A stretch of DNA of 50,624 bases from Bacillota bacterium (GTDB taxonomy: Bacteria; Bacillota; DTU030). Each line of letters opens with the position of its first letter. Position 1 is the stretch's first letter. Shown one piece after another: positions 10,201 to 36,226 of this stretch. A model generated the notes under the pieces. That model was given only the letters and a program-made list of their open reading frames with translations. It did not search any database and was not told the DNA's origin. The stretch lies in assembly GCA_012523785.1 (NCBI GenBank), contig JAAYTH010000047.1:1-50624 (forward strand), in the 5' to 3' direction. Position numbers and translations under genes: made by a program.

Positions 10201-10207
10201 TAAATAA

Positions 10208-16341: not shown

Positions 16342-16384
16342 TATTTGTATGGTATTATTATGGTGATGTTAAAATAAAAACAAA

Positions 16385-16490
16385 TAATCTCCGAGCCTGA
16401 TTAGCCTAAAGGTGTAAAGCCCAGGGTACCAGGCCGCTAGGGTACACCGGAAACGGTGCTGCCTCCCGGAATTATGGAAAGGAGATGGCG
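16385..16490 (+). promoter_or_regulatory. Candidate molybdenum/tungsten cofactor (Moco RNA motif) riboswitch aptamer
   Basis: As I recall them, the conserved Moco-motif blocks occur in the expected order. They are CTCCGAGCC (16389-16397), CCTAAAGG (16405-16412), GCCTCCC (16461-16467) and GGAAAGGAG (16476-16484). CTCC and GGAG can close a P1 stem. There is a 5-bp hairpin capped by a GAAA tetraloop (CACCG-GAAA-CGGTG, 16445-16458). Tetraloop-receptor-like halves are present: CCTAA(A)G and TATGG (16473-16477). No covariance-model search was run. Confidence 0.55.
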
Positions 16491-16504
16491 ATATAGAAGT
16501 TTTT

Positions 16505-16535
16505 AAAACGTCTTCTCCAAGACGTTTTTTCTTTT
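16505..16535 (+). terminator. Intrinsic terminator forming the expression platform of the leader
   Basis: AAAACGTCTT (16505-16514), loop CTCC, AAGACGTTTT (16519-16528), then TTCTTTT. An alternative pairing exists between GGAGATGGCG (16481-16490, including the 3' half of the proposed P1) and CGTCTTCTCC (16509-18). That pairing has 8 Watson-Crick pairs plus 1 G-U out of 10 and would act as an antiterminator. Confidence 0.75.
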
Positions 16536-16620
16536 GTCTGTCTATTTTTCCTTGCCAGCCCTCTGTCCCTCGCCTTCACCCGATGGAAGAATAATTATCA
16601 CTAGTTTGGGGTGTTTTGTT

Positions 16621-18132
16621 GTGGTTCACATTAATAAAAGTGTTATTTCCCGCTGCCTACTTGTTATTTTGGCTACCTTTATGTTTGCCAGCTTATTGGC
16701 CCTTGCCCTAACACCGCTTGTGGAGGCTGCCAGCGGTGATCTGGAAATAACCGGCCCTGGTCTTAATGGGAGAAGAATTATTATCAGCCAAGGCCAGTTG
16801 CGGGGCACAGAACCCCTATTTTTCCCGGATGGTACAATGGTTGAACAAGAGGAAGAATGGTACAGTGCTATCAATACTTGGCCCAGTAAGATCTGGTACC
16901 GGGGTCAGGGCATCAAGTTGAGGGACCTTCTCAGAGCTGCCGGCGGGGTTAATGAACAGGCTACACTTATCAAGTTTACTGCTAGGGATGGTTTAACTAT
17001 GACCTTTACCCTAGAGGAGTTAATAAATGAACCCGCCTATCGTTTCCCCAATTTTATGGATGGTGGTTTAGAGGGCCATCTTCCCGGTGATCCTTCGGGG
17101 GCAGTACAGGTGGAACCCCTCCTCGCCCATAAGAGTTTTTCCCATCATAAAAAACTAACAATTATGACGGAAGAAAATGAATTAACTGGCAGTGATGCCC
17201 CCCATCTCCTCTTTGGACAGCGGGCGATAACCCAACAAAACAATGCCCGTTTTATCAAGCAGGTAACAAAAATTGAGATACTTACAGATGAAATTGATAA
17301 ATGGGACAAGCCCAGCGTTTCTCCGGCCCCGGGGTTAGTGGCGGCCGGAACCTTGGTGAAACTTTGCGGGCCCTATGGGGATGAAGATAAGGTTCACTAT
17401 ACTATAGATGGCAGCAAGCCAGGCCTAGGGAGCCCTATGTATAACCTGGTTGCCAGCCGCTGGTGGTCCTCCCGCCGCGATTTAGATGACATCAACCGCC
17501 CCATAGAAATTACTGAGGACACAACTATTAAGGCTGTGACAATTGGGCCTGGTAAAGCAGATAGCGATATTGTCAGCTTTATCTTTAGGGTAAAAGAAGA
17601 CGAGGAAGAGACAGGCAAAACCCTTACTGATATTAATGGTCATTGGGCCCAAAATAATATCATTAAACTTGTTAACCGCGGTGCCATCAGTGGCTATATC
17701 GATGGCACCTTTAGGCCAGATCATATTATTACCAGGGCCGAGTATGTTACCGTGCTTTTGAAGGCCTTTCAAATGGAGGGAGAGGGGGAAAGGGTGTTTG
17801 CCGATACAAAATCCCATTGGGCCAAGGGATATATCGCTGCAGCGGTAGCTAAGGGTATTGACGACGGATATGACAGCACTACCTTTGGCCCCGATGATGT
17901 TATTACCCGGGAACAGATGGCAGTAATGGTGGCCCGGGCGGCCAATTTGGCAGCCCCTGGGAATAGGATTTCCTTTGCCGACGGAGATAAGATTTCCCCC
18001 GGGGCTGTGGACAGGGTGGCGGCGGCGGTGGAAAAAGGCATAATTAGGGGATACCCTGACAACACCTTCCGCCCCCAAGGCAGTGCCAGCAGGGCTGAGG
18101 CCGTTACCATTATTACCCGGGCACTGCCCTAG
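16621..18132 (+). CDS. Secreted surface protein, paralog A: SUOX-fold molybdopterin-binding-like domain, then a chitobiase/hexosaminidase-C-like (Fn3-associated) domain, then 3 SLH domains
   Basis: The ORF-track start at 16534 lies inside the terminator. I therefore prefer the in-frame GTG at 16621, which has GGGGTG 7 nt upstream. Signal peptide: CLLVILATFMFASLLALALTPLVEAASG. Motifs: LEITGPG...YSAINTWPSKIWYRGQGIKLRDLL...FTARDG...LLFGQRAITQQ...KIEILT. Also VHYTIDGSKPGLGSPMYN. The C-terminal repeats are SLH-type: HWAQNNIIKLVNRGAISGYIDGTFRPDHIITRAEY, SHWAKGYIAAAVAKGI, ISPGAVDRVAAAVEKGIIRGYPDNTFRPQGSASRAEA. Confidence 0.85.
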   Translation: MVHINKSVISRCLLVILATFMFASLLALALTPLVEAASGDLEITGPGLNGRRIIISQGQLRGTEPLFFPDGTMVEQEEEWYSAINTWPSKIWYRGQGIKLRDLLRAAGGVNEQATLIKFTARDGLTMTFTLEELINEPAYRFPNFMDGGLEGHLPGDPSGAVQVEPLLAHKSFSHHKKLTIMTEENELTGSDAPHLLFGQRAITQQNNARFIKQVTKIEILTDEIDKWDKPSVSPAPGLVAAGTLVKLCGPYGDEDKVHYTIDGSKPGLGSPMYNLVASRWWSSRRDLDDINRPIEITEDTTIKAVTIGPGKADSDIVSFIFRVKEDEEETGKTLTDINGHWAQNNIIKLVNRGAISGYIDGTFRPDHIITRAEYVTVLLKAFQMEGEGERVFADTKSHWAKGYIAAAVAKGIDDGYDSTTFGPDDVITREQMAVMVARAANLAAPGNRISFADGDKISPGAVDRVAAAVEKGIIRGYPDNTFRPQGSASRAEAVTIITRALP

Positions 18133-18241
18133 CAAACAATAGTAACTGCTTAGTGGCACCCACTGATGTCATTCTGGGCAAAGCGAAGGATCAGGGCCAT
18201 GGTTATTAATCAGACAGCAGAAGGGCCAGGGGAAGGAAGTT

Positions 18242-19846
18242 ATGATGGGTTTTACTAGAATATTGGCAGCAAATCATAAAATATCAGCGTCGGCCCTATT
18301 CCTACTGCTGTTCTTTTTTTTGCTTCCATCTGCCTCCGCCAGTGCCGAACCTGGTGGGGCCTTGGAAATCATTGGCCCTGGGGTGGAAACCCCCGGGACA
18401 TTTAAGCTCTCTGAACTGGAGGCCAGGGAGCAATATGAACATATTTACAGTGCTGTAAATACCTACCCCACCAAGCAGTGGTATGTAGCCCGGGGTGTTT
18501 TATTAAAAGATTTGCTTGGGTCCCTTGGCCTTAGGGATGAGGCAACCCTAATCCGTTTTTATTCCCAGGATGGCTATGATGTTGTTTTTACGGTACAAGA
18601 ATTGCTGGTGGACAAGCGCTACTATTTCCCTAAATTAAAGGACAATCATCCCAGTGATGGAAGTGTTCCCGGGTCTTCAGAAGATGCGGAAGAGGTAGAA
18701 ACAATTTTAGCCCTGGTCAGTGCTGAGGGAAGTGATAACCCGGAACATATGAATACAAAGGATACCCTACAGCTTATCCTGGGACAGCGGGCAGTGACGG
18801 AACAAGTAAGCACCTTGTTTGTGAAAAACATAAACAAGATTGAGGTACTAACCAAAGAGCTGGAACAATGGGATCGGCCGCGGATGAATGTGCCGGAGGG
18901 TTTTGTGCTGCCTCCGGGGGCAAAATTAATTTTACAGAACAAGAACTCTGATACCGACAAAATTTATTATACTATTGATGGCAGTACCCCCACTGTGGAT
19001 AGTCCCATGTTTAACTGGAGTGCCAGCCGCTGGTGGCCTCTGCGGGGAGATCTGGATAAGATCAATGCCCCCCTTAAAATTACAGATGACATCTTAAAAG
19101 ACCATGATAAACAAACCCTCACCATTAAGGCCCGGACCATAGGGCCGGGAAAGAAAGATAGCGATATAGTCACCTTTACCTTCTATATAGATCCTGACGC
19201 AGTTGATCCCACATTGGAGACAGGGGGGCCTACTACTGGGGTTTTTCTTGATCGGCAGGAGATTGAACTCCCGGTTGGAGGCACCTTCCAATTGGAGGCT
19301 AGGGTGGAACCTTTTAATGCGGACAACAAACATTTGATCTGGCGTTCCAATGATACCACGGTGGCCGTGGTAGATACCCAAGGTTTGGTGACAATGGTGG
19401 GTACAGGCAGTGCTGTTATCACCGTTGAAACTGTGGAAGGGGGCCACAGGGCTACTTGTCTTATCAATGGTACAGGTGGGGAAGAGGAGGATAAGATTGA
19501 AGTCGAGGAATACCTTGTGGAAGGGGATAATAATGTAAAAGCAGATCCCGTCGAAGGCGGGGGGGTAGATCCTGCTGAAACTGCCCCGTCCCCTGTGTCC
19601 GATGAAAGGTTATCCACAGATAGGTGGCAATACCTGATAAGCAGAGATGAATTATCTAGCCCAACAATAGATGGAACTCCGGGGAAAGAACAAGCCCCTT
19701 TAGGGCAACAAATATTTGCGATGTCGGTGGTAAATCCCACCCCCTTACAGGCGGATAACCATGAATTATCCACCACCTTGATTTTTCTATTTTTACTTCT
19801 TTCCGGTGCTGGTATAAAATACAGCGAATATGTGAAGGAGCTATAG
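18242..19846 (+). CDS. Secreted surface protein, paralog B: same N-terminal two-domain core, then a Big_2-like Ig domain, a low-complexity linker and a C-terminal transmembrane anchor
   Basis: Signal peptide: ALFLLLFFFLLPSASASAEPGG. Core motifs: YSAVNTYPTKQWYVARGVLLKDLL, YSQDGY, LILGQRAVTEQ, KIEVLT, IYYTIDGSTPTVDSPMFN. Big_2-like segment: LPVGGTFQLEARVEPFNADNKHLIWRSNDTTVAVVDTQGLVTMVGTGSAVITV. C-terminal hydrophobic tail: TTLIFLFLLLSGAGI followed by KYSEYVKEL. Confidence 0.85.
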   Translation: MMGFTRILAANHKISASALFLLLFFFLLPSASASAEPGGALEIIGPGVETPGTFKLSELEAREQYEHIYSAVNTYPTKQWYVARGVLLKDLLGSLGLRDEATLIRFYSQDGYDVVFTVQELLVDKRYYFPKLKDNHPSDGSVPGSSEDAEEVETILALVSAEGSDNPEHMNTKDTLQLILGQRAVTEQVSTLFVKNINKIEVLTKELEQWDRPRMNVPEGFVLPPGAKLILQNKNSDTDKIYYTIDGSTPTVDSPMFNWSASRWWPLRGDLDKINAPLKITDDILKDHDKQTLTIKARTIGPGKKDSDIVTFTFYIDPDAVDPTLETGGPTTGVFLDRQEIELPVGGTFQLEARVEPFNADNKHLIWRSNDTTVAVVDTQGLVTMVGTGSAVITVETVEGGHRATCLINGTGGEEEDKIEVEEYLVEGDNNVKADPVEGGGVDPAETAPSPVSDERLSTDRWQYLISRDELSSPTIDGTPGKEQAPLGQQIFAMSVVNPTPLQADNHELSTTLIFLFLLLSGAGIKYSEYVKEL

Positions 19847-19851
19847 TCAAA

Positions 19852-20505
19852 ATGAATGGGCCCATATTGATCTACCTCAAGGATATGCTTCACGGCATTG
19901 CTAGCGGCCTATTAATACCAACCATAATCATCCTTATCTGCTTTTTGGCCTTGTCAGTGGTGGAATTAGGCGGTTTGCTAGTAGAAATCATAATGGAAAG
20001 ACGTCGGGAAAAAACAAATGTACCCCAATTAATAAGTGCCCTGCCGGGAAAAGGTGCTGTGGAGATAATGGCTAAAATAGAACAAAGCTCCCTTTTTCTT
20101 CGGCAGAAGGAAGTTATTGCCGAGATAATCCGCCATAGGGAATTGCCATCTGCTTCTTTGCGCGCCCTGGCTCGACGCCTTCTATCGGCAGAGGAAAGCC
20201 ATTTTACCAGCATAACTGATAGAACTGATCTAGTGGCCCGCTTGGCCCCTATGTTGGGCCTAATGGGCACCCTTATACCCCTAGGACCGGGCATAATTGC
20301 CCTGGGTCAAGGTGATACCCAAACCCTGGCCAGTTCCCTGCTCATTGCCTTTGATACCACTGTAGCAGGCCTGGCCGCCGCTGGCGTTGCCTACGGCATA
20401 TCCCGGCTGCGGAAAAGATGGTATGAGGAGCAGATCAATACATTGGCAGCACTGTTGGAAAGTTTGCTGGAGGTGTTTGAAAATGGACGGGGGCTTGCGG
20501 AATAG
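19852..20505 (+). CDS. MotA/TolQ/ExbB-family proton-channel protein
   Basis: 217 aa. There is an N-terminal TM segment (LLIPTIIILICFLALSVVELGGLLV). The C-terminal two-TM channel core is LAPMLGLMGTLIPLGPGIIALGQGD...LLIAFDTTVAGLAAAGVAYGISRL, typical of MotA_ExbB. The gap to the preceding gene is 5 nt. Confidence 0.85.
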   Translation: MNGPILIYLKDMLHGIASGLLIPTIIILICFLALSVVELGGLLVEIIMERRREKTNVPQLISALPGKGAVEIMAKIEQSSLFLRQKEVIAEIIRHRELPSASLRALARRLLSAEESHFTSITDRTDLVARLAPMLGLMGTLIPLGPGIIALGQGDTQTLASSLLIAFDTTVAGLAAAGVAYGISRLRKRWYEEQINTLAALLESLLEVFENGRGLAE

Positions 20506-20815
20506 AAGGTACAGCGGCCTTGGAAGGAAGGAAGACATCAATCCCCTGGAAGGGGTCATCAATGTTGCCGATATCATGCTGGTTTTTGCCTGTGGTTTGA
20601 TGTTGGCCTTGGCTGTCTATTGGAATATTGATCTGGGCCCGGTAGGGGAACGAATTGATCTCCACAAGGGGCAGGAAATGACAGAGGACCCAAAAATACG
20701 GGACGATTTGGTGGAAAGTCCGGACCAGGGCGGCAGGTATGAACGGGTTGGTACTGTATACAAGGACCCGGCCACGGGACAGCTTTTTATGCTCACTGAA
20801 GGTGAGGGAAAATAG
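20483..20815 (+). CDS. Small single-pass membrane protein, DUF2149-like / ExbD-TolR-analogous partner of the preceding channel protein
   Basis: I chose the ATG at 20483, which has GGAGGTG 7 nt upstream and overlaps the upstream gene by 23 nt. The sequence MDGGLRNRRYSGLGRKEDINPLEGVINVADIMLVFACGLMLALAVYW resembles the ExbD/TolR N-terminal pattern (short charged tail, INxxPhxDVxhVhhhhh TM helix). A soluble tail follows (YERVGTVYKDPATGQLFML). The family assignment is from memory. Confidence 0.6.
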   Translation: MDGGLRNRRYSGLGRKEDINPLEGVINVADIMLVFACGLMLALAVYWNIDLGPVGERIDLHKGQEMTEDPKIRDDLVESPDQGGRYERVGTVYKDPATGQLFMLTEGEGK

Positions 20816-20894
20816 TTTTTCCCCGCCGCTAAAGTACATATTCGGATGGTGTTGTGTAAACCCAACAATATAAAAAAGGGGGAGAACAGGGCCC

Positions 20895-22274
20895 ATGGTA
20901 TCAAATAAAAAAGACACTACCCTAGTTGCAAGGCCGGCCCCGGACCCGGGGAAAAAACTTTATTTATTTGGTCCCTTGTTTTTTCTTGTTGCCGGGGTTC
21001 TATTGTTTTCCTTGGTACTGGATCTATCCTTGGGGGCGATGGTTTTTGCTAGCCCCGATTCCCTGATAATTGCCGGGGAAGGGGTGAAGGAGGAAGTGAT
21101 CTTTACCCGGGAAGAATTAGAGGAAATGGAACGGGAGCAATGTCTTTACAGTTCTATAAATACTTGGCCCACCAAGAAGTGGTATGTGGGAGAAGGAATA
21201 AAGCTTATGGATTTGCTCCACCAGGCGGGCCTCAAAAAAGAGGCCACCCTCTTGAGATTCACCGCAGCCGATGGTTTTACCGTGGATTTAACTTATAAGG
21301 AGTTGTTTGAAGACCAGCGTTACTGTTTTCCCAATTTTAAGAAAGGGGCCGCCAGTGGGGAGGGACATGTACCCGGCAGTGCATCTAATGCTGTGGCAGT
21401 GGAACCCATCATTGCCCTTTATGCCGTGGAGGGAAGCAGTGACCCCGAATATATGAGTACCCTATATTCACCCCAGCTGATGTTAGGGCAACGGGCAGTG
21501 ACAGAGCAGACGGGAAACTTATTTGTCAAGTACTTACATAAAATTGAGGTTCTTACCGATGACCTAGAACGGTGGGATGTGCCCCGGGGAAACCCTCCGG
21601 CGGGCCAGGTACCCAAGGGCAGCATGGTAGCCTTGAGCAATGATAACTGTGATGATGACAAGATTTATTACACCCTGGACGGCAGCACCCCCACCATTAA
21701 CAGTCCCATGTACAACTGGATTGCCAGCCGCTGGTGGTCAACCCGGGCGGAAGAATTAGGCACCATCAACCATCCCTTGGGGCCTCTAGTGGAGGACACC
21801 ACCATTAAGGCTGTTACCATTGGTCCCGGCAAGTTGGACAGCGAAGTGGCTGTTTTCCACTATCGGCTGGAAGGTGGGGAAGGGGATAAGGGAACCACCA
21901 TCCTTTTGACCATTGGTGAATATGAAGTTGATGTGGATGGTGAAATTATTTACCTAGATGCTGTCCCCTTTATCAAGCCCGGTGTCGACCGCACCCTGGT
22001 ACCGATACGTTTTATTGCCAAAGCCTTTGGTGTTGATATTGCTTGGAATCCCGAGGCCAGGCTAGTTATCATCAGCCTGGATGGTAAGGAGGTGGTCCTG
22101 GAGATCAACTCTAGCCAAGTGTATGTCAACGGGCTAGCCCGGACCATTGAATGTCCAGCTGAATTGCATCCTCCGGGCCGCACCTTTGTACCCCTGCGTT
22201 TTATCAGCGATATTTTGGGGGCCAAAAGTGTAGATTATGATGGGGAAAGCAGGCAGATAAGTATTATTTGGTAA
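20895..22274 (+). CDS. Surface protein, paralog C: N-terminal TM/signal anchor, the same two-domain core, and a C-terminal copper-amine-oxidase-N-like (stalk) domain
   Basis: TM segment: LYLFGPLFFLVAGVLLFSLVLDLSLGAMVFA. Core motifs: YSSINTWPTKKWYVGEGIKLMDLL, FTAADGF, LMLGQRAVTEQ, KIEVLT, IYYTLDGSTPTINSPMYN. The C-terminal segment is DRTLVPIRFIAKAFGVDIAWNPEARLVIISLDGKEVVLEINS...GRTFVPLRFISDILGAKSVDYD, which is the Cu_amine_oxidN1-type repeat pattern. Confidence 0.85.
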   Translation: MVSNKKDTTLVARPAPDPGKKLYLFGPLFFLVAGVLLFSLVLDLSLGAMVFASPDSLIIAGEGVKEEVIFTREELEEMEREQCLYSSINTWPTKKWYVGEGIKLMDLLHQAGLKKEATLLRFTAADGFTVDLTYKELFEDQRYCFPNFKKGAASGEGHVPGSASNAVAVEPIIALYAVEGSSDPEYMSTLYSPQLMLGQRAVTEQTGNLFVKYLHKIEVLTDDLERWDVPRGNPPAGQVPKGSMVALSNDNCDDDKIYYTLDGSTPTINSPMYNWIASRWWSTRAEELGTINHPLGPLVEDTTIKAVTIGPGKLDSEVAVFHYRLEGGEGDKGTTILLTIGEYEVDVDGEIIYLDAVPFIKPGVDRTLVPIRFIAKAFGVDIAWNPEARLVIISLDGKEVVLEINSSQVYVNGLARTIECPAELHPPGRTFVPLRFISDILGAKSVDYDGESRQISIIW

Positions 22275-22376
22275 GGAAGCGGTTTGTTTTACAACCGTGT
22301 CTATTTTTTTGCTGGGGAGGTGATGTATCCGTTTTGCTTATGTCACCCGGGTAAAATATTATCAGGAGGTAGTAAT

Positions 22377-25300
22377 ATGCCAAAAAAGGTGAATAGGATA
22401 TCTGTACAGAAGGTTTTATCACTTATCTTGGGGTTACTTTTGCTTTTGAGTGGGGCTGGACAATTGACGGTACTTCCCGCCCGGGCCGCCGGAATGGAGG
22501 TACTTTATGAAGGACGGATTGACTTGCCAGCGGGCGAAACCTTTGCTGTAACAGCCTATAACTCAGGGGTATCTTATACGGTGGACATGGATACTCCCTT
22601 GGGGGCCCTCCAAATAGCGGGAGACCTGGCAGGCTTTGAGTATGATGTTACCGACAAGAACATTGATGCCTCGGGTGCCTTATTGCTGGACAATGTGGGC
22701 CAATATGAGCGGAAACCGGGCTATTGGTATGCTTATGTCAATGGTGCCTACAAGGATGGTTTTAACAATCCCGCCGGGGCCCTGAACCTTATTAAGCTCA
22801 CTAATGGCGATGAAGTTGAATTCTATTATGCTGCCGATGTAAAGGGCAAAGAAGAAGATTTAGCTGCTGTTCAAGGGGCTGCCATAGCAGCGGTCATAGC
22901 CCACATAGGAACAGATGGGGCAGCGGTTACGGATACAGGGGAAAAGACAGATGTGGATGTCACCCAAGATGACTGGACCCTGCAGCTTTCAGGTGCCCGG
23001 GAAGAAACGGTTAGCAGGAGCTACTTTGAAGAGGGATTAGCCTGTCATTCAAGCCATCAGGTGTTTTGGACCGATGAGGATGGCAATGAATGGGGTGGGG
23101 TACCCCTTTGGCTCTTGGTGGCCATGGTGGATGACGATCCGGATGAAGGATCGGCCCATTACAACTTTAATGATGAACTGGCAAATGAAGGCTATACCAT
23201 CGACGTTATTGCCGGTGATGGTTGGAAGGCTACCCTCGCTAGTGCAGACATCGCCCGGGATGATGGCTATATTATTGCCAACACCTTAAATGGCAAACCC
23301 CTGCCCAAGGAAACGCCGGGGGGTAAAGACTGCTGGCCCCTCCATTTAAAGGGAGAAAAGATCTTTGGTGGCCAACAGGTGGGTAACATTGTCCGCATTG
23401 AACTGACCGGCCTGCCAAAACCAGTAGAAGGATGGACATTAGAGCTGGTGGGTAAGGTTGGAGATTCCATCACCCAGGAAGAATTTGAAAAGGGGCAAGT
23501 CTGTATCGGGACCAAGGACCACTATGCCGAGTGGACCGATAATGAAGGGAAAGTTTGGTCCGGTACCCCCCTATGGATATTGGCCGGTGCTGTAGATGAT
23601 ATTGAAGAAAGCACCCATTGGACCTTTAATGATGTCGTGGCCCAGGAGGGTTATACCATACGCGTAGAGGCCGAAGACGGATTTTCCAGGACTTTTTCCA
23701 GCCAAGATGTGGCCCGCAGTGGCGACTACATTGTTGCCGATCGGGTAGATGGTAAACCTCTTTCTGCCAAACACTGGCCCCTCCGTCTTGTCGGTCCTGG
23801 TGTGACCAAAGAGGATGGTTCCCTGGGTGGGGCCGCTGTCGGCAACATTGTTAAAATTACAATTCCCGAATTGCTTACGCCGGCGGCGGAGGGGGGCTCT
23901 TGGAATCTTACCCTTACCGGTGCAATTGACTATATCATGTCCCAGGCAGAATTTGAAGAGGGCCTAGCCTGCCATAAAAAAGAATGGATAGATGCCGAGG
24001 GCCAAGTCTGGTCCGGGATGCCCCTTTGGTACTTGGCGGGTTGGGTAGATGATAAGGTACCCCACGATTTTAATGTCAATCTGGCTAATGCCGGGTATAC
24101 AATCCATGTCAAGGCGGAGGATGGCTATACCAAGGATTTTGCCAGTCAAGATGTGGCCAAGAGCAGTGACTATATACTGGCCAATGAAGTAGATGGTGAA
24201 CCCTTAACTGAATCCTGGCCCCTACGCTTGGTCGGTGACGGTGTAGCTACAGATGGTTCCTTAGGTGGTCACAGTGTAGGTGGTGTGGCGACTGTAGCCT
24301 TGACTGATTTTGAGGCAGAAACGCCTGTACCAGAAATTCGGATCATAAAATACGGCGAAGATGGCCAAACCGTTCTGGCTGAGGAGACAGTAACCTACCA
24401 GTGGATGGAGGAAAACTTGGAAGTAATTGGTGATGGAAAAACTGTTTACAGATATGAAGGAATCATTTTTGACCCCGAAGATGAATGGGGTGATAATATT
24501 GCTGTCCCGAAGGATTTCAAAATTGAGAATGCCGTAAAGGGTACCCGGGTCAAGGATTTAGTGGAACTTGTCGGAGGGATGGGGGCTGGGACCGAAATTG
24601 TTTTTGTGGCCAAGGATGGCTGGGAAACCAGGTTACCCTATTCCAGTATTTATACAGACCCAATGGTGCAGGAACGTCAGGGTGACGCCATTCTGGCATG
24701 GTATTCCGATGGCGAATATGTACCCGACTACGCTGGAATTCGCCTCTTCTTTACCCCCGGTGGGGATCATATCTACCGGCAAAAAGATATGCGGGACACC
24801 CTTCCGGAGGCTTACTGGCACTATTACGGTAAGGGCGGTACATTACTTCCCTCCTGTGCCGGTTTATCGGCAAAATGGCTTGCGGAGGTTTGGGTTTATT
24901 CTATGCCGGAAAAGGATTGGACACTGAAGTTGGATGGCAGGGAGATCGGTGGGCTGGAATATGAGGTGAGCAAAACCTATTGGGAGCAGGGTCTGACCTG
25001 TCAGTTTGGTGCCAACCATAAGTCTTCTTACACCGATGATAAAGGACGGGTGTGGGAGGGAATGTCCCTTTGGCTTTTGGCCGGATTTGTCGATGATGAG
25101 GATCAGCACTCCGACCATGCCTTTAACACTGCGCTGGCCGAGGCTGGTTACAATATCCTCCTCACTGCTGCTGACGGTCATTCTGTGACGGTCCACAGCA
25201 CCGATATCATACGAAATAAGGATTATATTGTGGCCAGTATGTTAGATGGCCGAGCTATGTCAGAAGATGATAAACACTGGCCCCTGCGTTTGGTGGGCCC

Positions 25301-25865: not shown

Positions 25866-25904
25866 ATGCAAAAGGCAAGCAGTAGGGTTTTATGCTAAAG
25901 GATG

Positions 25905-25949
25905 ATTGGGCAAAACTTCAGGGGCTTAGGCAACTATGTTTTGCCCAAT
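25905..25949 (+). terminator. Long-stem hairpin between the giant surface-protein gene and the phosphoesterase gene; a possible internal terminator or processing site
   Basis: ATTGGGCAAAAC (25905-25916) and GTTTTGCCCAAT (25938-25949) form a perfect 12-bp stem with a 21-nt loop. The trailing sequence TGTTACAT is not a clean U-tract, so terminator function is uncertain. Confidence 0.3.
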
Positions 25950-26019
25950 TGTTACATAAAAAGTAGTGCCATTATTCGGTAATGCCCCTGATATTATCTA
26001 GAATAAAAGGAGTAAAAAA

Positions 26020-27423
26020 ATGAAGTGCAGGGAATTTATCTTTAACATCTGCCGGGACAGGGCCGGCCCAGTGATTGTCCTGCTGGTGTATTTCTTACTG
26101 TTGACCAATCCTATTCCGGTGGCAGCAGGATGTGGGCACAATGCTGGCCGGGCTGACCATATTCTTCTTTCTTGGACTGGGGATCCCTTGACCACGCAGA
26201 CTATTTCCTGGCAGGCCGGGGCGGGAAGCGGCCAAGATTCCCTCCAATATATTGCCGCCGCCAAATATGACGGTACTTTTTCCGATGTTGGGAAAGTGAA
26301 GGGAAAGGGAAGCCCCCTTGATAAGGACTATTGGCGCTTTACAGTAACCCTAAGGGGTTTATTACCTAAAACCGAATATCTTTATAGGGTCGGCGGGGAA
26401 GGGGATTGGAGTGAACCTGCCTCTTTCACCACCGCCGCACCGGAGGATCGTTTTTCCTTTCTTTATATGGGGGATGTCCAAGAAGGTTATGAAGATTGGG
26501 GTGACATGTTGGCCCAAGTTTGGAAGGAAAATCCCCAACTCCGGTTTGTCCTTATGGGTGGCGACCTGGTGGATAAGGGAAATGATTTAAGTGAATGGCA
26601 GCAATTTTTAACTGCCGCCGGGCCCGTTTTTAGGAGCCTACCCCTACTAGCGGCGGTAGGAAACCACGATGATACAAACCTATTCCGGACCCTTTTTGCC
26701 TTACCTACCAATGGGCCCAAGGGGCATGAGGGGACTGTCTATTCCTTTGACTATGGTAATTGCCATATCACGGTATTGAATAGCAATTGCATGGGCATTC
26801 CCGGTACCCTGGGTTTTGATGACTTGGCCCATTGGCTGCGGCAGGATTTAGCCTCCAGCCGGCAGACCTGGAAGTTTGTGGTTTTTCACCATCCCCCCTA
26901 CCAGGTGGTTCAAAACTGGCGGGGAGAACACCTGCAAAAGAACTGGGTACCTTTTTTGGAGGAAGGTGGTGTGGACCTGGTCTTTAGTGGCCACCAACAT
27001 GTTTACATGCGGACAAAACCACTATGGGAAGGTTGTATTCAGCCCGAGGGGCAGGGTATTGTCTATGTAATGGGCAATTCAGGCACTAAATACTATGGGC
27101 CCGGCCCTGATCAGGACTATATTACTCAGCAGGTGGCCTGGGTAAGCAATTACCAGTTGATTGAGATTGACGGCAACACTTTATATATGACGGCCAAGGC
27201 TGCTTCGGGTGAGGTAATAGATACCTACAGGATAGTAAAGGGGAGCGGGGTCGTTGACAATCGCAATGATGAAATTTGCCCCGCCGGTTTTAGGTATTAT
27301 TTCATCCCCTGGTGGCTATTACACCCTGTAAAGACTCCTATTGACTATGCCGCCGTCCTTACACAGGCTAATGCGATTATAAGCGCTAACTTGGAGGGTT
27401 TCCCCAGCTATTTTACAAATTGA
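26020..27423 (+). CDS. Secreted or membrane-anchored purple-acid-phosphatase-like metallophosphoesterase
   Basis: 467 aa. RBS AAAGGAG. N-terminal hydrophobic segment GPVIVLLVYFLLLTNPIPVAAGCG. A PAP N-terminal Fn3-like part follows (ILLSWTGDPLTTQTISWQ...YLYRVGG...WSEPASFTTA). The metallophosphatase motifs are FLYMGDVQ, MGGDLVDKG, AVGNHD, VVFHHPPY, SGHQHVY. Confidence 0.8.
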   Translation: MKCREFIFNICRDRAGPVIVLLVYFLLLTNPIPVAAGCGHNAGRADHILLSWTGDPLTTQTISWQAGAGSGQDSLQYIAAAKYDGTFSDVGKVKGKGSPLDKDYWRFTVTLRGLLPKTEYLYRVGGEGDWSEPASFTTAAPEDRFSFLYMGDVQEGYEDWGDMLAQVWKENPQLRFVLMGGDLVDKGNDLSEWQQFLTAAGPVFRSLPLLAAVGNHDDTNLFRTLFALPTNGPKGHEGTVYSFDYGNCHITVLNSNCMGIPGTLGFDDLAHWLRQDLASSRQTWKFVVFHHPPYQVVQNWRGEHLQKNWVPFLEEGGVDLVFSGHQHVYMRTKPLWEGCIQPEGQGIVYVMGNSGTKYYGPGPDQDYITQQVAWVSNYQLIEIDGNTLYMTAKAASGEVIDTYRIVKGSGVVDNRNDEICPAGFRYYFIPWWLLHPVKTPIDYAAVLTQANAIISANLEGFPSYFTN

Positions 27424-27494
27424 TCTTTCGATCAGATGGGCTCCTCCCTATATGTTTTTAAATGTGTTATTTCCCAAGTATGGGGGTTAAGGAT

Positions 27495-28046
27495 ATGCAA
27501 GCACTTATTTTTCGCCAGAAAACATTTGCCTACCTACTTCTCCTTATATTTTGCTTTTGGGGTAACGGCTGTGGCCCAGTAGAAGATCATCCCCCGGGGG
27601 CCGTTATTATCGAAGGAGTTGGTGTAGAAAGTACAGTATCCTTCACTTTGGAAGAATTAAAGGCCTTGGAAGATGGCCTGGTGGAGGCTGATTACTATGC
27701 CCTTAATTCCTATGGCACCGAGGGGCGTTTCCACTTTAAGGGTATTTGGGTATGGCATATAATAGAGAAAATGGTAAATTTGCAGGATGATGCGGCGGTA
27801 GTCAACTTCATTGGCCAGGATGATTACCAGGTGGAGTTTACCCTGGAAGATGTAAAAAAGGAAGATTATATAGATGAAGGGGACCCGGCAGTAAAACACA
27901 AGATGATCATAGCATGGGAAGAAGATGGAGTAGAGTATGATCCTAGCCGAGGCAATCCCTTCCAGCTGGTGGTTGGCCAGCGGGAACCCGGGGATGTGAA
28001 TAGGCCCTACTGGGTGCGAAATCTCAAAATTATTCGTATAGATTAG
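27495..28046 (+). CDS. Small lipoprotein consisting of a single SUOX-fold molybdopterin-binding-like domain
   Basis: The start is uncertain (27462, 27480 or 27495). The signal and lipobox region is AYLLLLIFCFWGNGCGP. Domain pattern: VIIEGVGVESTVSFTLEELKAL...FKGIWVWHIIEKM...VNFIGQDDYQVEF...MIIAWEEDGVEY...NPFQLVVGQREPGDVNRPYWVRNLKIIRI. Confidence 0.75.
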   Translation: MQALIFRQKTFAYLLLLIFCFWGNGCGPVEDHPPGAVIIEGVGVESTVSFTLEELKALEDGLVEADYYALNSYGTEGRFHFKGIWVWHIIEKMVNLQDDAAVVNFIGQDDYQVEFTLEDVKKEDYIDEGDPAVKHKMIIAWEEDGVEYDPSRGNPFQLVVGQREPGDVNRPYWVRNLKIIRID

Positions 28047-28244
28047 TAGTTACTAGCCCGTGGTGTTTATAAAATCATCGCTTACAAAGTATCTAAACCA
28101 TACTATAAACCGACCTAATTATCGTTATGCAAAGATCCTTTGCTTCCTTCAATCTGGTACTAAGGGTTATACCCAGTAGTGGCAATTAGTACTACAGGGC
28201 TTGAAATCTATAGAAGATGGCTATCTAGGCTGGGGGGTAATATT

Positions 28245-29315
28245 GTGGAAGTAACAAAAAATCACCCAAAATACTACCTGGGCAATAGAGATCTGTTGAT
28301 CATTGCCGTATTAAGCGGTATTGGTGGGGTGATGAGTACCTATGTAGGCTATTTGGGCAACCTGATAAACCAAGTTTTTGGTGTACCCTTTGGTGCAGGG
28401 CAATTTGCTTCGGGGTTACATGTCTTTTGGTTTATTTTAGTGGCCGGGTTGGTAAAAAAGCCCGGTGCTGCCAGTGCCGCGGGCCTTCTTAAGGGTATTA
28501 TTGAGCTATTGACCGGCAGCACCCATGGTGTGGCCATTGTTTTGGTTTCCCTAGTTCAGGGGCTGTTGATTGATCTGGTTCTTTTTCTCTTCAGGCACCC
28601 TAGTATGGTCAGTTACATGCTGGCCGGCGGCATTTCCGCCGCTTCTAATGTTTTTATCTTTCAACTTCTTTATTTTTCTGGGGCACCTATTACATATATT
28701 ATTTTTATCGGCTCCCTAGCCTTTGTTTCTGGTATTCTCTTGGCTGGCAGTTTTGGGTGGAGTGTTTTGGATGTGGTACTGCAAGCCAGGCCCTATCGCA
28801 TTTCTGCCAGGGAAGAAAACAGCATAATTGCTCCTGATAAAGGAGTTAAAACAGCCCCCTCCACCATTAAAGTTGTTAGCACCTTCCTTTTGATACTATT
28901 ATTGGCTGGGGGGGCGGTATACTATTTTGCCCTTGTTTTTGAACCACCTTGGATTGCCCCCCTCATTCAAGTAGAAGGGGCAGTAGAAAAGACCATTTCC
29001 CTTCCCCTGGAACACTTTACCTCCCATGAAACAACGATTAGGGCCGAATTGCAGGGCCAGGTCAAATATGTCCCCCCCCAAGAATATACGGGGATTCCCG
29101 TCTATGCCATATTACAAGAATCAGTACCCTCAAGTGAAGCTACGAAACTCAAGGTTATGGCTTCTGATGGCTATATGGTGGAGTTTGATTTGATAAAGGT
29201 GTTAAATGATAACCAGATGCTCCTCATCCGTGAAGGGGATAGCCTACGGCTAATAGCCGGAAATTATGAGGGAGGCCGTTGGGTAAGGATGGTAAACAAG
29301 TTTATTATAGAGTAA
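28245..29315 (+). CDS. ECF-transporter substrate-specific (S) component fused, through an extra TM helix, to a C-terminal extracytoplasmic SUOX-fold molybdopterin-binding-like domain
   Basis: The start is ambiguous: GTG at 28245 with GGGGGG 7 nt upstream, versus the track start at 28179. There are about 6 hydrophobic helices in S-component style (LLIIAVLSGIGGVMSTYVGYL; GLHVFWFILVAGLV; AIVLVSLVQGLLIDLVLFLF; MLAGGISAASNVFIFQLLYF; ITYIIFIGSLAFVSGILLAG). A seventh helix follows (VVSTFLLILLLAGGAVYYFALVF). The soluble domain lies at about 28965-29312: IQVEGAVEKTISLPLEHF...YTGIPVYAILQE...KVMASDGYMVEFD...LRLIAGNYEGGRWVRMVNKFII. The gene is immediately followed by EcfA-A and EcfT genes. Confidence 0.7.
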   Translation: MEVTKNHPKYYLGNRDLLIIAVLSGIGGVMSTYVGYLGNLINQVFGVPFGAGQFASGLHVFWFILVAGLVKKPGAASAAGLLKGIIELLTGSTHGVAIVLVSLVQGLLIDLVLFLFRHPSMVSYMLAGGISAASNVFIFQLLYFSGAPITYIIFIGSLAFVSGILLAGSFGWSVLDVVLQARPYRISAREENSIIAPDKGVKTAPSTIKVVSTFLLILLLAGGAVYYFALVFEPPWIAPLIQVEGAVEKTISLPLEHFTSHETTIRAELQGQVKYVPPQEYTGIPVYAILQESVPSSEATKLKVMASDGYMVEFDLIKVLNDNQMLLIREGDSLRLIAGNYEGGRWVRMVNKFIIE

Positions 29316-29366
29316 GTAAACAAAAATCAGCCTAACTCCTTTTTCAAGCTAAGGGAGGGAATTGAT

Positions 29367-30905
29367 ATGACAATGCCCCTCGTAGCCATCAATAATTTAT
29401 CCTTCACCTACAATGGCACTGTCTCTCCTGTACTGAGGAACATTAACCTGCAGGTATACCCGGGGCAATTTTTAACCATAACTGGTCCCAGCGGCTGTGG
29501 AAAATCCACCCTGGCCCTCTGCTTGGCGGGTTTTATTCCCCATGCCTATCCGGGAAAAATGACCGGCAGCATTCACATACAGGGGAAGGATACCCGGGAT
29601 TATCCGGCCGGAGGTTTATCGGGTATTGTGGGCCTGGTGCAGCAAGATCCGGAGGCTCAACTTTGTACCTTGACGGTAAAGGATGAAATAGCCTTTGGCC
29701 CGGAAAATCTTTGTTTGCCACCGAAGGTGATAAGAAAGCGGGTTTTAAGCGCCCTGGAAGCTGTGGGAGCTAAAGATTTGCTTGCCAGGAAGGTTCATAC
29801 CCTTTCTGGGGGTGAAAAACAGCGAATAGCCATTGCCTCAGTGCTGGCTATGAATCCTTCCCTTTTGATCTTGGATGAACCGACGGCAAATCTGGACCCT
29901 TCCTGTACCAGGGAGGTATTGCTTACTTTGGGGGAACTAAAGGGAAGGCAGAAAACTGCCATTATAGTCCTAGAACATCGAATAGATAGGTTAGCCGGTA
30001 TTACCGATAGACTTTTTTATATGGATAAAGGAAGATTATTCACGGCCCGGGGTCCGGATAAATTCAAAAAAAAATATGTACCCAGCAAAAGGCGCCACGG
30101 GCCCATGTCAGCTGGGGTCCAGGTTGCAAATAAGACTAATGCAAGCAATAACAATAAAGTGCTTCCCCTATTGACAGTGGAAAATTTGCGGGCTGGCTAT
30201 GCTGCTAGGGACGTTTTTAGCGATCTCAGTTTTTCCATTTATTCCGGGGAAACCCTGGCCCTTATGGGGGATAACGGTAGTGGCAAAACCACACTTTTAT
30301 TGGCATTGTTGGGTCTTTTGCATAATACAGGGGGCAGTATATACTTTAGGGGCGAAAATATAACCAAAATGAAGGCCTCCCAGCGGGCCCGGGAGATGGG
30401 CCTAGTTTTCCAAAACCCTAACCACCAGATATTTGCTCCTACTGTTACTGAAGAAGCAATGCTGCCTTCCCTTTATTTAAGCCCGGAAACGCCGGGGCAA
30501 ATCAAAGGCAAGGTTAAAAAGCTGCTGGGGGAATTTGAACTATTAAAGTATGAAAATCTTAATCCCTTTACCCTGAGTTTGGGGGAGAAAAAAAGACTTA
30601 CTCTCCTTTCGGTCCTGGCCTATGCACCGTCCCTTTTACTTTTGGATGAACCCCTTGTGGGGCAGGATAGCCGGCGACTGGGGATTTTTTTCGCTGCTTT
30701 ACAAAAGCACCGGCACCGGGGAGGAGGGGCATTGATGATCTGCCATGAACCAGAGGTGGTTCATTCTTGCTGCCAAAGGGTTTTGTTTTTGGAGCAGGGT
30801 AAATTGCTCATTAATGCCCCGGTAAAGGAAGCCTTTTGCCAATTGGAAAAAATGGGGCGCGGGGAATATTTGCCCTTACAGGCCGAGGGGAAGTGGGGGG
30901 AGTGA
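29367..30905 (+). CDS. ECF transporter ATPase, fused tandem EcfA-EcfA' (two ABC nucleotide-binding domains)
   Basis: 512 aa. RBS GGGAGGG. The first domain has GPSGCGKST, LSGGEKQR and LLILDEP. The second domain has GDNGSGKTT, LSLGEKKR and LLLLDEP. Confidence 0.9.
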   Translation: MTMPLVAINNLSFTYNGTVSPVLRNINLQVYPGQFLTITGPSGCGKSTLALCLAGFIPHAYPGKMTGSIHIQGKDTRDYPAGGLSGIVGLVQQDPEAQLCTLTVKDEIAFGPENLCLPPKVIRKRVLSALEAVGAKDLLARKVHTLSGGEKQRIAIASVLAMNPSLLILDEPTANLDPSCTREVLLTLGELKGRQKTAIIVLEHRIDRLAGITDRLFYMDKGRLFTARGPDKFKKKYVPSKRRHGPMSAGVQVANKTNASNNNKVLPLLTVENLRAGYAARDVFSDLSFSIYSGETLALMGDNGSGKTTLLLALLGLLHNTGGSIYFRGENITKMKASQRAREMGLVFQNPNHQIFAPTVTEEAMLPSLYLSPETPGQIKGKVKKLLGEFELLKYENLNPFTLSLGEKKRLTLLSVLAYAPSLLLLDEPLVGQDSRRLGIFFAALQKHRHRGGGALMICHEPEVVHSCCQRVLFLEQGKLLINAPVKEAFCQLEKMGRGEYLPLQAEGKWGE

Positions 30906-31792
30906 ATTTACACCTTAAAGGCAAATATAAAACCTTACTCCCAAAAGCAAAACAAAAAGACATTTATCCCGGTTTGACCTATGTCGATAACCCATCCCGG
31001 ATTCACTCTTTGCACCCCCTTATCAAGTTGGCCTTGCTGTTTTGCTTTGGTATAATGGTTTTTGCCGTTTCCACGGTTATGGGTCAGGTTCTTCTCTTTT
31101 GCCTGCTTTTAACCGCCTGTCTCCTGGCCCAATTGGGTAGCTCTTTTTTCCTTCGCAGATTGAGATTTATTTTTATATTTTGTTTTTTTATCTTCCTGGT
31201 CCAAGCCCTGACGGTAAAAGAAGGCTTTTTGATCTGGCGTTTTTCCCTCGGCTACTTTCACCTATCTTTATGGTCAAAGGGGCCCTGGGAAGGTTTACGA
31301 ATGGCAATGCGTTTTATCAATATTATCGGCTCTAGTTTCTTGTTTGTGGCCACTACAGATCCTAATAGGTTGGCCTATGCCCTAATGCAGGTTGGACTTC
31401 CATATCGCCATGGCTTTGCCCTCATAACAGCCCTCCGTTTTATCCCGGTTTTTCATCTGGAGTTGGAGCAGGTAAAAAATGCCCAAGCGGCCAAGGGTAT
31501 AGAGCTGGAAGGACTTTCACCTAAGCAACTGCTGCGAGCCCTCAAATATATTTTGCTCCCCCTGGTTGTCTCTAGTTTGAGCCGGGTGGATAATTTGACC
31601 CTTTCCATGGAGGGCCGGGCCTTTGGTTTACACCCCCAAAGGACTTATATGCACTCCCAAGTATTATCAGAGAAAGAAAAAATAGTGCTTTTTATGATTC
31701 CGCCCGCATTTTTGCTTCTATATTTTATTTGTAATTGCCCGGCAGCGCTCCTTAATACCATCCTGAATATTGCAAAGTCCCTTTGGCACTGA
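30902..31792 (+). CDS. ecfT: ECF transporter transmembrane T component (EcfT/CbiQ family)
   Basis: The GTG at 30902 overlaps the TGA of the ATPase gene (GTGA), and the track start at 30836 is probably too early. The protein is multi-TM with the two coupling-helix-type motifs VKNAQAAKGIE and LSMEGRAFG (the AxxxRG pattern). Confidence 0.85.
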   Translation: MNLHLKGKYKTLLPKAKQKDIYPGLTYVDNPSRIHSLHPLIKLALLFCFGIMVFAVSTVMGQVLLFCLLLTACLLAQLGSSFFLRRLRFIFIFCFFIFLVQALTVKEGFLIWRFSLGYFHLSLWSKGPWEGLRMAMRFINIIGSSFLFVATTDPNRLAYALMQVGLPYRHGFALITALRFIPVFHLELEQVKNAQAAKGIELEGLSPKQLLRALKYILLPLVVSSLSRVDNLTLSMEGRAFGLHPQRTYMHSQVLSEKEKIVLFMIPPAFLLLYFICNCPAALLNTILNIAKSLWH

Positions 31793-31903
31793 CCCGTAAA
31801 GTTCTTTTGTTCTTAAGTTATCTTTCGTTGACATGTAGAAGGGATGAAAGCCGGGGCTCCTTAACAGCAATGAAATTGACACCCTATTTCCTCCGGAGCA
31901 AGC

Positions 31904-31942
31904 AAAAGAGGGTTATAGACAAAGCGTCTATAGCCCTCTTTT
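31904..31942. terminator. Bidirectional intrinsic terminator between convergent ecfT and the symporter gene
   Basis: AAAAGAGGGTTATAGAC (31904-31920), loop AAAGC, GTCTATAGCCCTCTTTT (31926-31942). The stem is 17 bp with one G-U pair. A-runs and T-runs flank both sides. Confidence 0.8.
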
Positions 31943-36135: not shown

Positions 36136-36167
36136 TGGTTAACCATACATAAAATATAGGTTGACCA
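36136..36167 (+). promoter_or_regulatory. Candidate BirA operator upstream of bioY
   Basis: TGGTTAACC, a 14-nt AT-rich spacer, then GGTTGACCA. This resembles the Firmicute BirA site (TGTTAACC-N14-GGTTAACA as I recall it) with 1 and 2 mismatches in the two half-sites. It lies 60 nt upstream of the bioY start. Confidence 0.45.
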
Positions 36168-36226
36168 TACAGGGAAAAGTTGATATGCTACATATAGTAA
36201 ATATAAACGCTAGGAGGGTATATGTA

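Follow-up and report, generated by a model that had tools for sequence, protein, structure and literature searches.

The 50,624-nt contig JAAYTH010000047.1 of a Bacillota bacterium (assembly GCA_012523785.1; GTDB DTU030), which we analyzed at its full length and refer to as the window, carries 11 consecutive plus-strand genes behind a riboswitch of the molybdenum cofactor (Moco) family. In order, these genes encode paralogs A and B, an ExbB-like protein, a DUF2149 protein, paralog C, a big wall protein, a purple-acid-phosphatase-type metallophosphoesterase (PAP), a lipoprotein, and the S component, fused EcfA-EcfA' ATPase (EcfAA') and EcfT of an energy-coupling factor (ECF) importer (Table 1). 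From the riboswitch class, gene content, module fold, signal-peptide types and conserved synteny that we observe, we propose, at what we judge to be even chances, that the cluster is a riboswitch-repressed system for acquiring a pterin of the tungsten cofactor (Tuco) or Moco pathway. A little more tentatively, we suggest that it may be the first prokaryotic salvage importer for a W/Mo pterin cofactor or its precursors, placed under Tuco riboswitch control, fed by empty receptors resembling the protein PruR and by a phosphoesterase, and built around an S component with a receptor of its own.

A P3-less riboswitch ahead of an ECF importer

The leader of the cluster holds the sole Rfam match across the whole 50.6-kb window. 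A covariance search with RF01055 gave 64.9 bits over the full model (1-135), conserved core included, which confirms the Moco-riboswitch-like leader with a terminator that a preliminary description of this DNA had reported from the letters alone. The assignment to the Moco family stands, and the plain Moco class named there can be sharpened to the P3-less, putative Tuco class: the P3 stem is deleted (model positions ~61-75 in the Rfam alignment) and the aptamer scores 95 bits with a P3-less covariance model (R1). P3-less Moco RNAs, a subclass defined by Regulski et al. (2008, PMC2408646), correlate with tungsten-cofactor metabolism. Given that the P3 stem is absent, we assign the cluster to a tungsten regulon. 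The 181-nt leader folds better than shuffled controls (z = -3.0), its terminator hairpin itself occupies 16505-16528 with the T run after it, and a loop UCUCC may be able to pair with GGAGA in the 3' strand of the aptamer. By its layout we read the leader as a transcriptional OFF switch with an OFF-type terminator platform, as had been suspected previously.

The last three genes encode a complete group I ECF set, with PF09819, two ABC_tran stretches and PF02361 in consecutive genes, all above Pfam thresholds, just as predicted in the preliminary description (S, A-A', T). The S component consists of a YkoE-type core, one extra strongly hydrophobic helix and then a copy of the module that recurs throughout the cluster (type II, see below); its profile matches YkoE (5edl, E 9e-14) over positions 15-181 and the sulfite oxidase (SUOX)-fold enzyme SoxC (2xts, 1e-5) over positions 277-356. 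Both termini of S components are cytoplasmic, as is known from structures, so that a single extra helix would place the module outside the cell. ECF transporters by definition work without extracytoplasmic binding proteins. This rule does not hold here, as the S component carries a SUOX-fold ectodomain and a single-module lipoprotein is encoded alongside it. By homology the S core belongs with YkoE, which binds thiamine or hydroxymethylpyrimidine (HMP), and not with the metal-specific CbiM/NikM, and there is no CbiN/NikN. We found no thiamine pyrophosphate (TPP) riboswitch linked to these operons; the upstream RNAs are of the Moco family.

The fusion of S component and module is widespread. 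It forms 339 homolog clusters at 90% identity and occurs in at least 245 species genomes; a search among 1.84 billion representatives returned 787 matches at E<=1e-3, of which only a few dozen are full-length fusions. The hosts include Syntrophomonadaceae, Dethiobacteria, Pelotomaculum, Desulfotomaculaceae, Syntrophaceticus, Thermovorax, Anoxynatronum and Desulfosporosinus, one Thermotogae metagenome-assembled genome (MAG) and, among archaea, Asgard lineages, Methanomassiliicoccales and Thermoplasmata. The bacterial hosts include syntrophic and alkaliphilic Bacillota; the archaeal versions of the system (Asgard, Thermoplasmatota and methanogen-related) come without the riboswitch. To survey the RNA we built a covariance model from five P3-less Moco RNAs and ran it on the window and 80 related loci, which gave 43 matches in the 81 sources, nearly all on the same strand as the S gene. 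The RNA lies upstream of S in 22 of the 35 bacterial loci that have at least 7 kb of upstream sequence. In ten of the 13 loci without it, the gene cluster reaches the upstream edge of the 10-kb flank, and the RNA of the window, 11.8 kb upstream of S, would likewise escape such a flank. Four loci (L029, L044, L045 and L048) have the RNA directly upstream of S, within ~400 nt. All 11 RNAs that we inspected lack P3, ten of them in Rfam alignments and that of L031 in an end-to-end match to the P3-less model (118 nt); the remaining RNAs, at 116-124 nt, are too short for P3. That the riboswitch, the module proteins and the ECF genes should co-occur elsewhere had been put forward as a synteny check, and the result is positive across many lineages. 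The presence of the same riboswitch class before S-module, EcfAA' and EcfT genes in so many lineages, sometimes immediately upstream, is strong comparative evidence for acquisition.

Comparison of the related loci defines a minimal operon composed of the riboswitch, a type I module protein of ~335-485 aa, a metallophosphoesterase fused to a type I module, S-module, EcfAA' and EcfT. Among the 42 loci whose downstream flank is long enough, S is followed by EcfA in 41 and by EcfT in 36. A metallophosphoesterase is encoded in 37 of the 55 loci with sufficient flank, and in 21 loci EcfT adjoins a small kinase-like gene (APH/RIO/Bud32-like). The large version seen in the window (the B-ExbB-DUF2149-C block, big protein, PAP and lipoprotein) is also found in L001, L011, L015, L023 and L043, while L009 and L035 combine the B-ExbB-DUF2149-C block with module proteins, with no phosphoesterase detected. 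Altogether, 7 loci have the ExbB and DUF2149 genes paired between B- and C-like genes. Two riboswitch operons (L024 and L032) additionally encode TupA (NCBIfam E 3e-64), TupB, TupC and a MOT1-family molybdate transporter, and Tup genes adjoin the system in L042, L044, L048, L014 and L043. In the Pelotomaculum loci each of the TupA genes, the S-AA'-T genes and the big-protein-PAP pair has a P3-less RNA of its own. Searches of the window for the kinase-like gene and for Tup genes found none. We also looked for moa and moe genes beside the related loci. The flanking genes are mostly unrelated (two-component system, trigger factor, Clp, spore germination) and hence uninformative on auxotrophy. A DcpA-like gene is absent from every related locus.

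Further genes accompany the system in some of these loci. One stretch (L048:7675-13952) has three P3-less RNAs in ~6 kb, heading two TupA genes, S-EcfAA'-EcfT, and a big module protein with PAP. In L030 (15278-19442) and L031 (same coordinates), a second P3-less RNA stands before another, small S component (PF12822, 178 aa), and this second unit continues with a Nitro_FeMo-Co-like protein and a xanthine-dehydrogenase-family Mo enzyme. In L067, L073 and L076 a few genes separate homologs of the PF12822 S component from the main system, and this protein may be a second cofactor-related S component that uses the same energising module. A TrmO_N (PF01980) protein of ~270 aa is encoded in 7 loci (L035:9081-9890, L036:9025-9831, L046:1020-1832, L002, L042, L044 and L048), in three of them directly upstream of S, and in the Pelotomaculum loci TupB and TupC are followed by a DUF364 gene ('putative heavy-metal chelation'). 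Lastly, a second riboswitch in L024 (13710-14660, 14653-19506) and L032 (14674-21051) is followed by genes for a dockerin protein and for giant proteins (1600-2100 aa) that carry type II-like modules; the capture proteins of these MAGs may sit on a cohesin-dockerin scaffold instead of SLH anchors.

A repeated module related to SUOX and PruR proteins

We next turn to the module that is shared by the S component and the surface proteins of the cluster. Its copies were located with profiles built exclusively from sequences outside the window, the type II profile from the lipoprotein family and the type I profile from modules of related loci. The type II profile matches the lipoprotein (4e-85), paralogs B (2.2e-19), C (1.5e-15) and A (4.7e-11) and the S ectodomain (6e-7). 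The type I profile matches four repeats in the big protein (aa 229-378, 383-529, 539-676 and 877-1023; 3e-44 to 2e-56). This gives nine firm modules carried by six proteins, not the seven proteins counted in the preliminary description. Of the 10-11 copies claimed there nine are firm, and the tenth, a divergent repeat in the big protein (~aa 750-815), is a marginal match (E 0.012 with PF00174, domain E 0.14 with the type II profile). Type I and type II modules are homologous (hhalign probability 96.7%, E 3.7e-10). A DUF4430-like domain, also claimed before, is not borne out, as the resemblance (Pfam E 0.038, 14.9 bits) stays below the threshold of 23.8 bits.

Several lines of evidence identify the fold. 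PF00174 scores 64 bits on the big protein, in several stretches, and 24.1 bits on the lipoprotein. Sequence profiles reach SUOX enzymes in the PDB (SorA 1e-4, SoxC 1e-5). The profiles are required for this, given that single-sequence PDB searches with the big protein and the lipoprotein return SLH matches or nothing. An AlphaFold2 model of the lipoprotein (pLDDT 88.6, from a 53-sequence alignment) finds the SUOX fold in 44 of 44 Foldseek PDB matches at E<=1e-3, a set that includes SorA, SorT, chicken and plant sulfite oxidase, nitrate reductase, YedY, SoxC and the PruR 'putative pterin binding proteins', and the highest target-normalised TM-score belongs to PruR entry 7kom (TMt 0.74). For the type I module, modelled from an alignment of five sequences only (pLDDT 80.3, pTM 0.81), the top seven Foldseek matches are all PruR, followed by sulfite oxidase and SoxC, and here too every match at E<=1e-3 has the SUOX fold. 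TM-scores to the PruR structures 7kom, 7kos and 7rkb range from 0.5 to 0.74. Profile matches and predicted structures thus bear out the SUOX identity proposed for the module from its motif, and the models place PruR proteins among the closest solved relatives of both module types.

The two types differ in their conserved residues. Type II modules, which occur in A, B, C, the lipoprotein and the S ectodomain, have no conserved Cys; the hairpin tip, the Cys site in SUOX enzymes, reads N-S-Y-G with an invariant Asn. Across 78 type I modules from bacteria and archaea, one Cys reaches 99% conservation and a His six residues later reaches 95%. AlphaFold2 places this Cys in a low-confidence loop ahead of a short hairpin and not at the canonical tip. 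HMMER profile-to-PDB and hhalign alignments covered the C-terminal half only and left the type I Cys region unmatched to the Mo-ligand Cys of the enzymes. The DGY motif and invariant Trp residues are present in the modules at the sequence level. The earlier suggestion that the modules are catalytically retired therefore fits the Cys-less type II copies; it does not fit the four type I copies, which keep the conserved Cys and His. The Pfam scan of the window proteins found no Mo-co_dimer domain (PF03404). No haem or cytochrome partner recurs in the related loci, and no cytochrome or YedZ-like gene was found.

The module proteins of the window have Sec-type signals, lipoboxes or membrane-anchor N-termini. 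A motif scan, a simple regular expression applied to open reading frames with uncertain starts, found no twin-arginine motif in the window proteins, for which we reject export by the twin-arginine (Tat) pathway, and 136 of 149 related proteins are likewise without a Tat-like motif. Extracytoplasmic Moco enzymes leave the cell folded and cofactor-loaded through Tat. Given that loaded Moco enzymes need Tat and that Tat signals are absent here, the modules would reach the surface empty. One related type I module protein (L028:782-2479) has a Tat-like TRRQLMR motif, unlike nearly all others, and could be a cofactor-loaded exception.

The remaining surface functions of the cluster are also supported by domain matches. 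Both the MotA/ExbB and DUF2149 pair and the secreted purple-acid-phosphatase-like enzyme that had been recognised before lie above Pfam thresholds. The start of the DUF2149 gene is uncertain; ATG 20483 would overlap the ExbB-like gene. The PAP motifs GD, GDxx, GNHD and GHxH (GHQH) are present in the translation, and the lipobox VAAGC predicts that PAP is probably a lipoprotein. Pfam scans of the window and related loci found neither TonB nor a TonB-dependent outer-membrane receptor.

What the cluster may import

Transporters under TPP, B12, FMN, preQ1 and tetrahydrofolate (THF) riboswitches carry the sensed cofactor or a precursor of it (see also PMC3766115). By analogy, we propose that the importer carries a pterin from the W/Mo cofactor pathway. 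Fusion of the module to the S component and, in minimal operons, to a metallophosphoesterase suits substrate recognition better than redox catalysis; its pterin-binding fold points to a pterin, the YkoE-type rather than CbiM-type S core supports a pterin over a metal, and the parallel between the regulon layout and that of B12 is a further argument. Candidate substrates would be W- or Mo-molybdopterin, a form trimmed from the dinucleotide cofactor, or a precursor such as cyclic pyranopterin monophosphate (cPMP) or molybdopterin (MPT). The wall-anchored capture and import system hypothesised in the preliminary description is thus supported as to acquisition by the riboswitch-ECF synteny, the likeness to PruR and the Sec signals, and for the identity of its substrate it continues to depend on the reasoning just given.

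We propose the following sequence of events, in which the ligand, the direction in which it is handed over and what the phosphatase, the kinase-like protein and the ExbB/DUF2149 pair do are all inferred. When the cofactor is scarce in the cytoplasm, the aptamer would be unliganded, the terminator (16505-16535) would not form and the 11 genes would be transcribed. Sec would export the proteins unfolded and their SUOX/PruR-fold modules would arrive on the surface empty, where the SLH-anchored paralog A and big four-module protein, with the membrane-tethered B and C, would catch ligand shed by neighbouring cells. The PAP-type lipoprotein would remove a phosphate or pyrophosphate ester, the single-module lipoprotein and the S-fused module would hand the product to the YkoE-type core of S, and EcfAA'T would drive its import with ATP. 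The ExbB/DUF2149 pair, whose genes lie between those of B and C, would probably power release or hand-over across the wall by proton-motive force. Once imported, the compound could be re-phosphorylated by the APH/RIO-like kinase-like protein that an adjacent gene encodes in about half of the related loci.

A number of points weigh against the import of a cofactor pterin. Free Moco and Tuco are labile. The TupABC and MOT1 genes in the operons of L024 and L032, and the Tup genes near the system in Pelotomaculum and L014, fit inorganic tungstate equally well; the near-invariant Cys and His of the type I modules also count against it, as does the lack of the kinase-like gene in the window. PruR has a truncated pocket that reportedly leaves too little room for whole Moco (PMC11194511, PMC13259868). 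Lastly, Syntrophomonas wolfei has P3-less RNAs before sulfite-oxidase-like genes and yet also has MPT synthesis genes (PMC2408646), so that the hosts are not obviously auxotrophs.

Among the alternatives, the acquisition of inorganic W or Mo survives best, although we regard it as unlikely. The ECF module would then import tungstate, molybdate, or thio- or poly-oxo species, and the surface modules (through the type I Cys/His) together with the phosphatase-like protein, whose dinuclear site binds tungstate and molybdate as phosphate analogues, would concentrate metal at the wall. Metal ECF importers do exist (CbiMNQO, NikMNQO), the type I modules retain their Cys and His, TupABC and MOT1 share an operon with the system in L024 and L032, and Tup genes adjoin it in the five other loci listed above. 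However, the S core is YkoE-like and not CbiM/NikM-like, with no CbiN/NikN, and the fold of the module is known as a pterin binder. We know of no case in which the SUOX/PruR fold binds free oxyanions. The TupA oxyanion binders encoded alongside would make a second oxyanion route redundant, metal uptake has no use for the recurrent kinase-like gene, and the phosphatase retains its catalytic motifs. The metal has in its favor the correlation of the P3-less riboswitch class with tungsten (PMC2408646).

It is distinctly less probable that the module proteins are surface oxidoreductases of the kind of MsrP/YedY or sulfite dehydrogenase, which depend on Moco or Tuco and are regulated by its availability, with the ECF transporter importing an unrelated substrate such as thiamine or HMP. 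The matches to PF00174, the NCBI name 'molybdopterin-dependent oxidoreductase', the conserved Cys of the type I modules and the Tat-like TRRQLMR of one relative (L028:782-2479) are what one would expect of enzymes, and Regulski et al. took the S. wolfei homologs as sulfite oxidases (PMC2408646). But switching genes off in response to the cofactor runs counter to what a cofactor-consuming enzyme would need, and the proteins have Sec or lipoprotein signals with no Tat. Type II modules are without the Cys, that of type I lies in the AlphaFold2 model in the pre-hairpin loop and not at the canonical tip, and there is neither a dimerisation domain nor an electron-transfer partner. Furthermore, the module is fused to S itself in ~245 species, the riboswitch can stand directly upstream of S, and PruR is among the closest structural relatives of both module types and comes first for type I. 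The PruR-like uptake or sensing of a pterin from outside the Moco pathway (neopterin, monapterin or a folate-pathway pterin), unrelated to cofactor supply, is equally improbable, given that riboswitches of this class are specific to Moco/Tuco metabolism, molybdopterin is not made from folate-branch pterins, no DcpA-type partner is encoded and tungstate transporters co-localise. Such a role would be in keeping with the structural likeness to PruR, which was crystallised with neopterin (PMC11194511), and with the excretion of pterins by bacteria (PMC13259868).

The proposed pterin importer combines features of several known systems. As in YkoEDC (thiamine/HMP, TPP riboswitch) and CbrT/CbiMNQO (B12 riboswitch), S, EcfAA' and EcfT stand behind a cofactor OFF riboswitch. 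The S core is homologous to YkoE of the group I ECF importers, and the B12 regulon has the same layout of metal transporter plus cofactor importer. Unlike group I ECF importers, the system has a Moco/Tuco riboswitch, an S component with a seventh helix and a predicted extracytoplasmic receptor domain, and, in the cluster, lipoprotein and wall receptors, a phosphoesterase and an ExbB/DUF2149 pair. The Hmu haem loci (Porphyromonas, Bacteroides hmuYRSTUV) also place ExbB-family and DUF2149 genes beside receptors for a metal-organic cofactor, but here there is no TonB-dependent receptor, TonB or CobN-like chelatase, and SLH-anchored wall proteins and ECF import are found instead. Salvage of the NadN-PnuC-NadR type, which thiamine salvage resembles, passes from an extracellular phosphoesterase through an importer to a cytoplasmic kinase. 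Here the first two steps have their equivalents in a secreted metallophosphoesterase and the ECF importer, and the kinase-like gene is found in about half of the related loci but not in the window; the families differ, and the analogy with NadN-PnuC-NadR is one of logic only.

The SUOX Moco enzymes (SorA, SoxC, sulfite oxidase, YedY/MsrP) share with the modules the fold and C-terminal motifs such as LRL(V/I)xxGxxGxxWVK, and the big protein exceeds the PF00174 threshold. In contrast to these enzymes, the modules are without Tat signal, dimerisation domain and redox partner, and the canonical Cys is missing (type II) or apparently elsewhere (type I). PruR is a secreted SUOX-fold protein without the Mo-ligating Cys and with no predicted enzymatic activity, in which the Moco site is truncated and a pterin is held between Tyr and Trp (PMC11194511). 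Like PruR (7kom, 7kos, 7kou, 7kp2, 7rkb), the type II modules are small secreted SUOX folds that lack the Mo-ligating Cys; sequence identity to PruR is merely 14-20%, however, and at the hairpin tip the invariant Asn of the type II modules stands in place of the PW motif of PruR. In Proteobacteria PruR signals to the cyclic di-GMP enzyme DcpA, whereas the modules described here are multiplied, wall-anchored or fused to a transporter or phosphoesterase, and occur in Bacillota and archaea.

We found no publication that links a Moco riboswitch to an ECF transporter or describes a bacterial Moco importer, in agreement with the earlier statement that no such salvage route had been described, and the system appears to be an undescribed variant of riboswitch-controlled ECF importer. 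Moco has been said not to be importable, making de novo synthesis a requirement, with Caenorhabditis elegans as the sole known exception and by a mechanism that is unexplained (PMC9026282), and a preprint on the type XI secretion system (T11SS) mentions molybdopterin uptake as speculation only. If our proposal is true, a dedicated importer in anaerobes would overturn the view of Moco as non-importable in prokaryotes. The 'sulfite oxidase' genes behind P3-less RNAs in S. wolfei, an exception noted in 2008 and left unexplained (PMC2408646), very probably belong to the present module family, and this anomaly would be accounted for. Such a system would also suggest cross-feeding of cofactor or tungsten in syntrophic, formate- and hydrogen-transferring communities that rely on tungsten enzymes. 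An ECF transporter that uses external receptor domains would contradict the definition of its class, the PruR-type pterin-binding fold would extend from signalling to transport, and hundreds of 'molybdopterin-dependent oxidoreductase' and 'thiamine permease' annotations would need correction. The proteins could serve as tools for stabilising and delivering Moco. Even with inorganic tungsten as the substrate, this would be a new type of W/Mo uptake, and those annotations would still need correction.

Extent of the cluster and neighbouring genes

The map of open reading frames agrees with the earlier outline of 11 same-strand genes separated by 199 nt or less, intergenic gaps being at most ~200 nt. 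Of the overlapping start and stop codons reported, we read that of EcfAA' and EcfT from the sequence as GTGA at 30902-30905, where the EcfAA' stop overlaps the probable EcfT start. The probable starts given in Table 1 were judged from the sequence and ribosome-binding sites. The strong bidirectional terminator described at the end of the cluster was recovered as the hairpin AAAAGAGGGTTATAGAC-AAAGC-GTCTATAGCCCTCTTTT; since an A run and a T run surround it, the terminator can work in both directions.

Table 1. Coordinates of the leader, genes, modules and terminators of the cluster in the window
Feature	Position (nt)	Strand	Evidence and remarks
Promoter-like site TTGCCA-17-TATTAT, extended -10 TG	16330..16358	+	consensus match only; 19 nt 5' of aptamer
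Moco/Tuco riboswitch aptamer RF01055, P3-less	16377..16500	+	64.9 bits vs gathering 36, E 2e-13
Predicted intrinsic terminator of expression platform	16505..16535	+	10-bp stem AAAACGUCUU/AAGACGUUUU, then UUCUUUU
Paralog A	16534..18132	+	Sec signal, type II module, Fn3_assoc/CHB_HEX_C_1, three SLH wall anchors (1.8e-41); probable start GTG 16621
Paralog B	18242..19846	+	Sec signal, type II module, Fn3_assoc, Big_2, hydrophobic C-terminal tail
MotA/TolQ/ExbB-family proton-channel protein	19852..20505	+	three transmembrane segments; PF01618 40.5 bits
DUF2149 protein, ExbD-like partner	20387..20815	+	one transmembrane segment; PF09919 33.3 bits vs 27.1 threshold
Paralog C	20895..22274	+	N-terminal membrane anchor, type II module, Fn3_assoc, Cu_amine_oxidN1
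Big wall protein	22284..25865	+	1162 aa from probable ATG 22377; Sec signal, N-terminal domain, four type I modules, three SLH repeats (4e-44)
Type I modules in big wall protein	22968-23417, 23427-23879, 23895-24317, 24912-25355	+	type I profile
Doubtful divergent module of big wall protein	~24530-24730	+	marginal
PAP	26020..27423	+	Pur_ac_phosph_N 58.8 bits, Metallophos 71.3 bits
Lipoprotein, one type II module	27462..28046	+	PruR-like SUOX fold without Cys (predicted); 102 homolog clusters
S component	28179..29315	+	356 aa from probable GTG 28245; PF09819 (ABC_cobalt) 72.8 bits
Fused EcfA-EcfA' ATPase	29367..30905	+	ABC_tran 4e-60, two stretches
EcfT, CbiQ family	30836..31792	+	PF02361 92.2 bits; probable start GTG 30902
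Bidirectional intrinsic terminator	31905..31942	both	perfect 17-bp stem flanked by A run and T run; shared with convergent SDF symporter gene

The genes that flank the cluster are housekeeping genes. Upstream, a run of DNA-end-processing genes (4373-16341, plus strand) encodes NurA, a HerA-like ATPase, an Mre11-like phosphoesterase, a Rad50-like AAA_23 protein, an AddB-like PD-(D/E)XK nuclease and an AddA/UvrD-like helicase, and stops immediately 5' of the riboswitch promoter. Farther upstream (533-3970, minus strand), the large subunit of ribonucleotide reductase is interrupted by an intein with a LAGLIDADG homing-endonuclease domain. Downstream of the cluster, a lone BioY S component is encoded at 36161-36805 (plus strand) without adjoining EcfAT genes, and this solitary protein may draw on the EcfAA'T of the cluster or on one encoded elsewhere.

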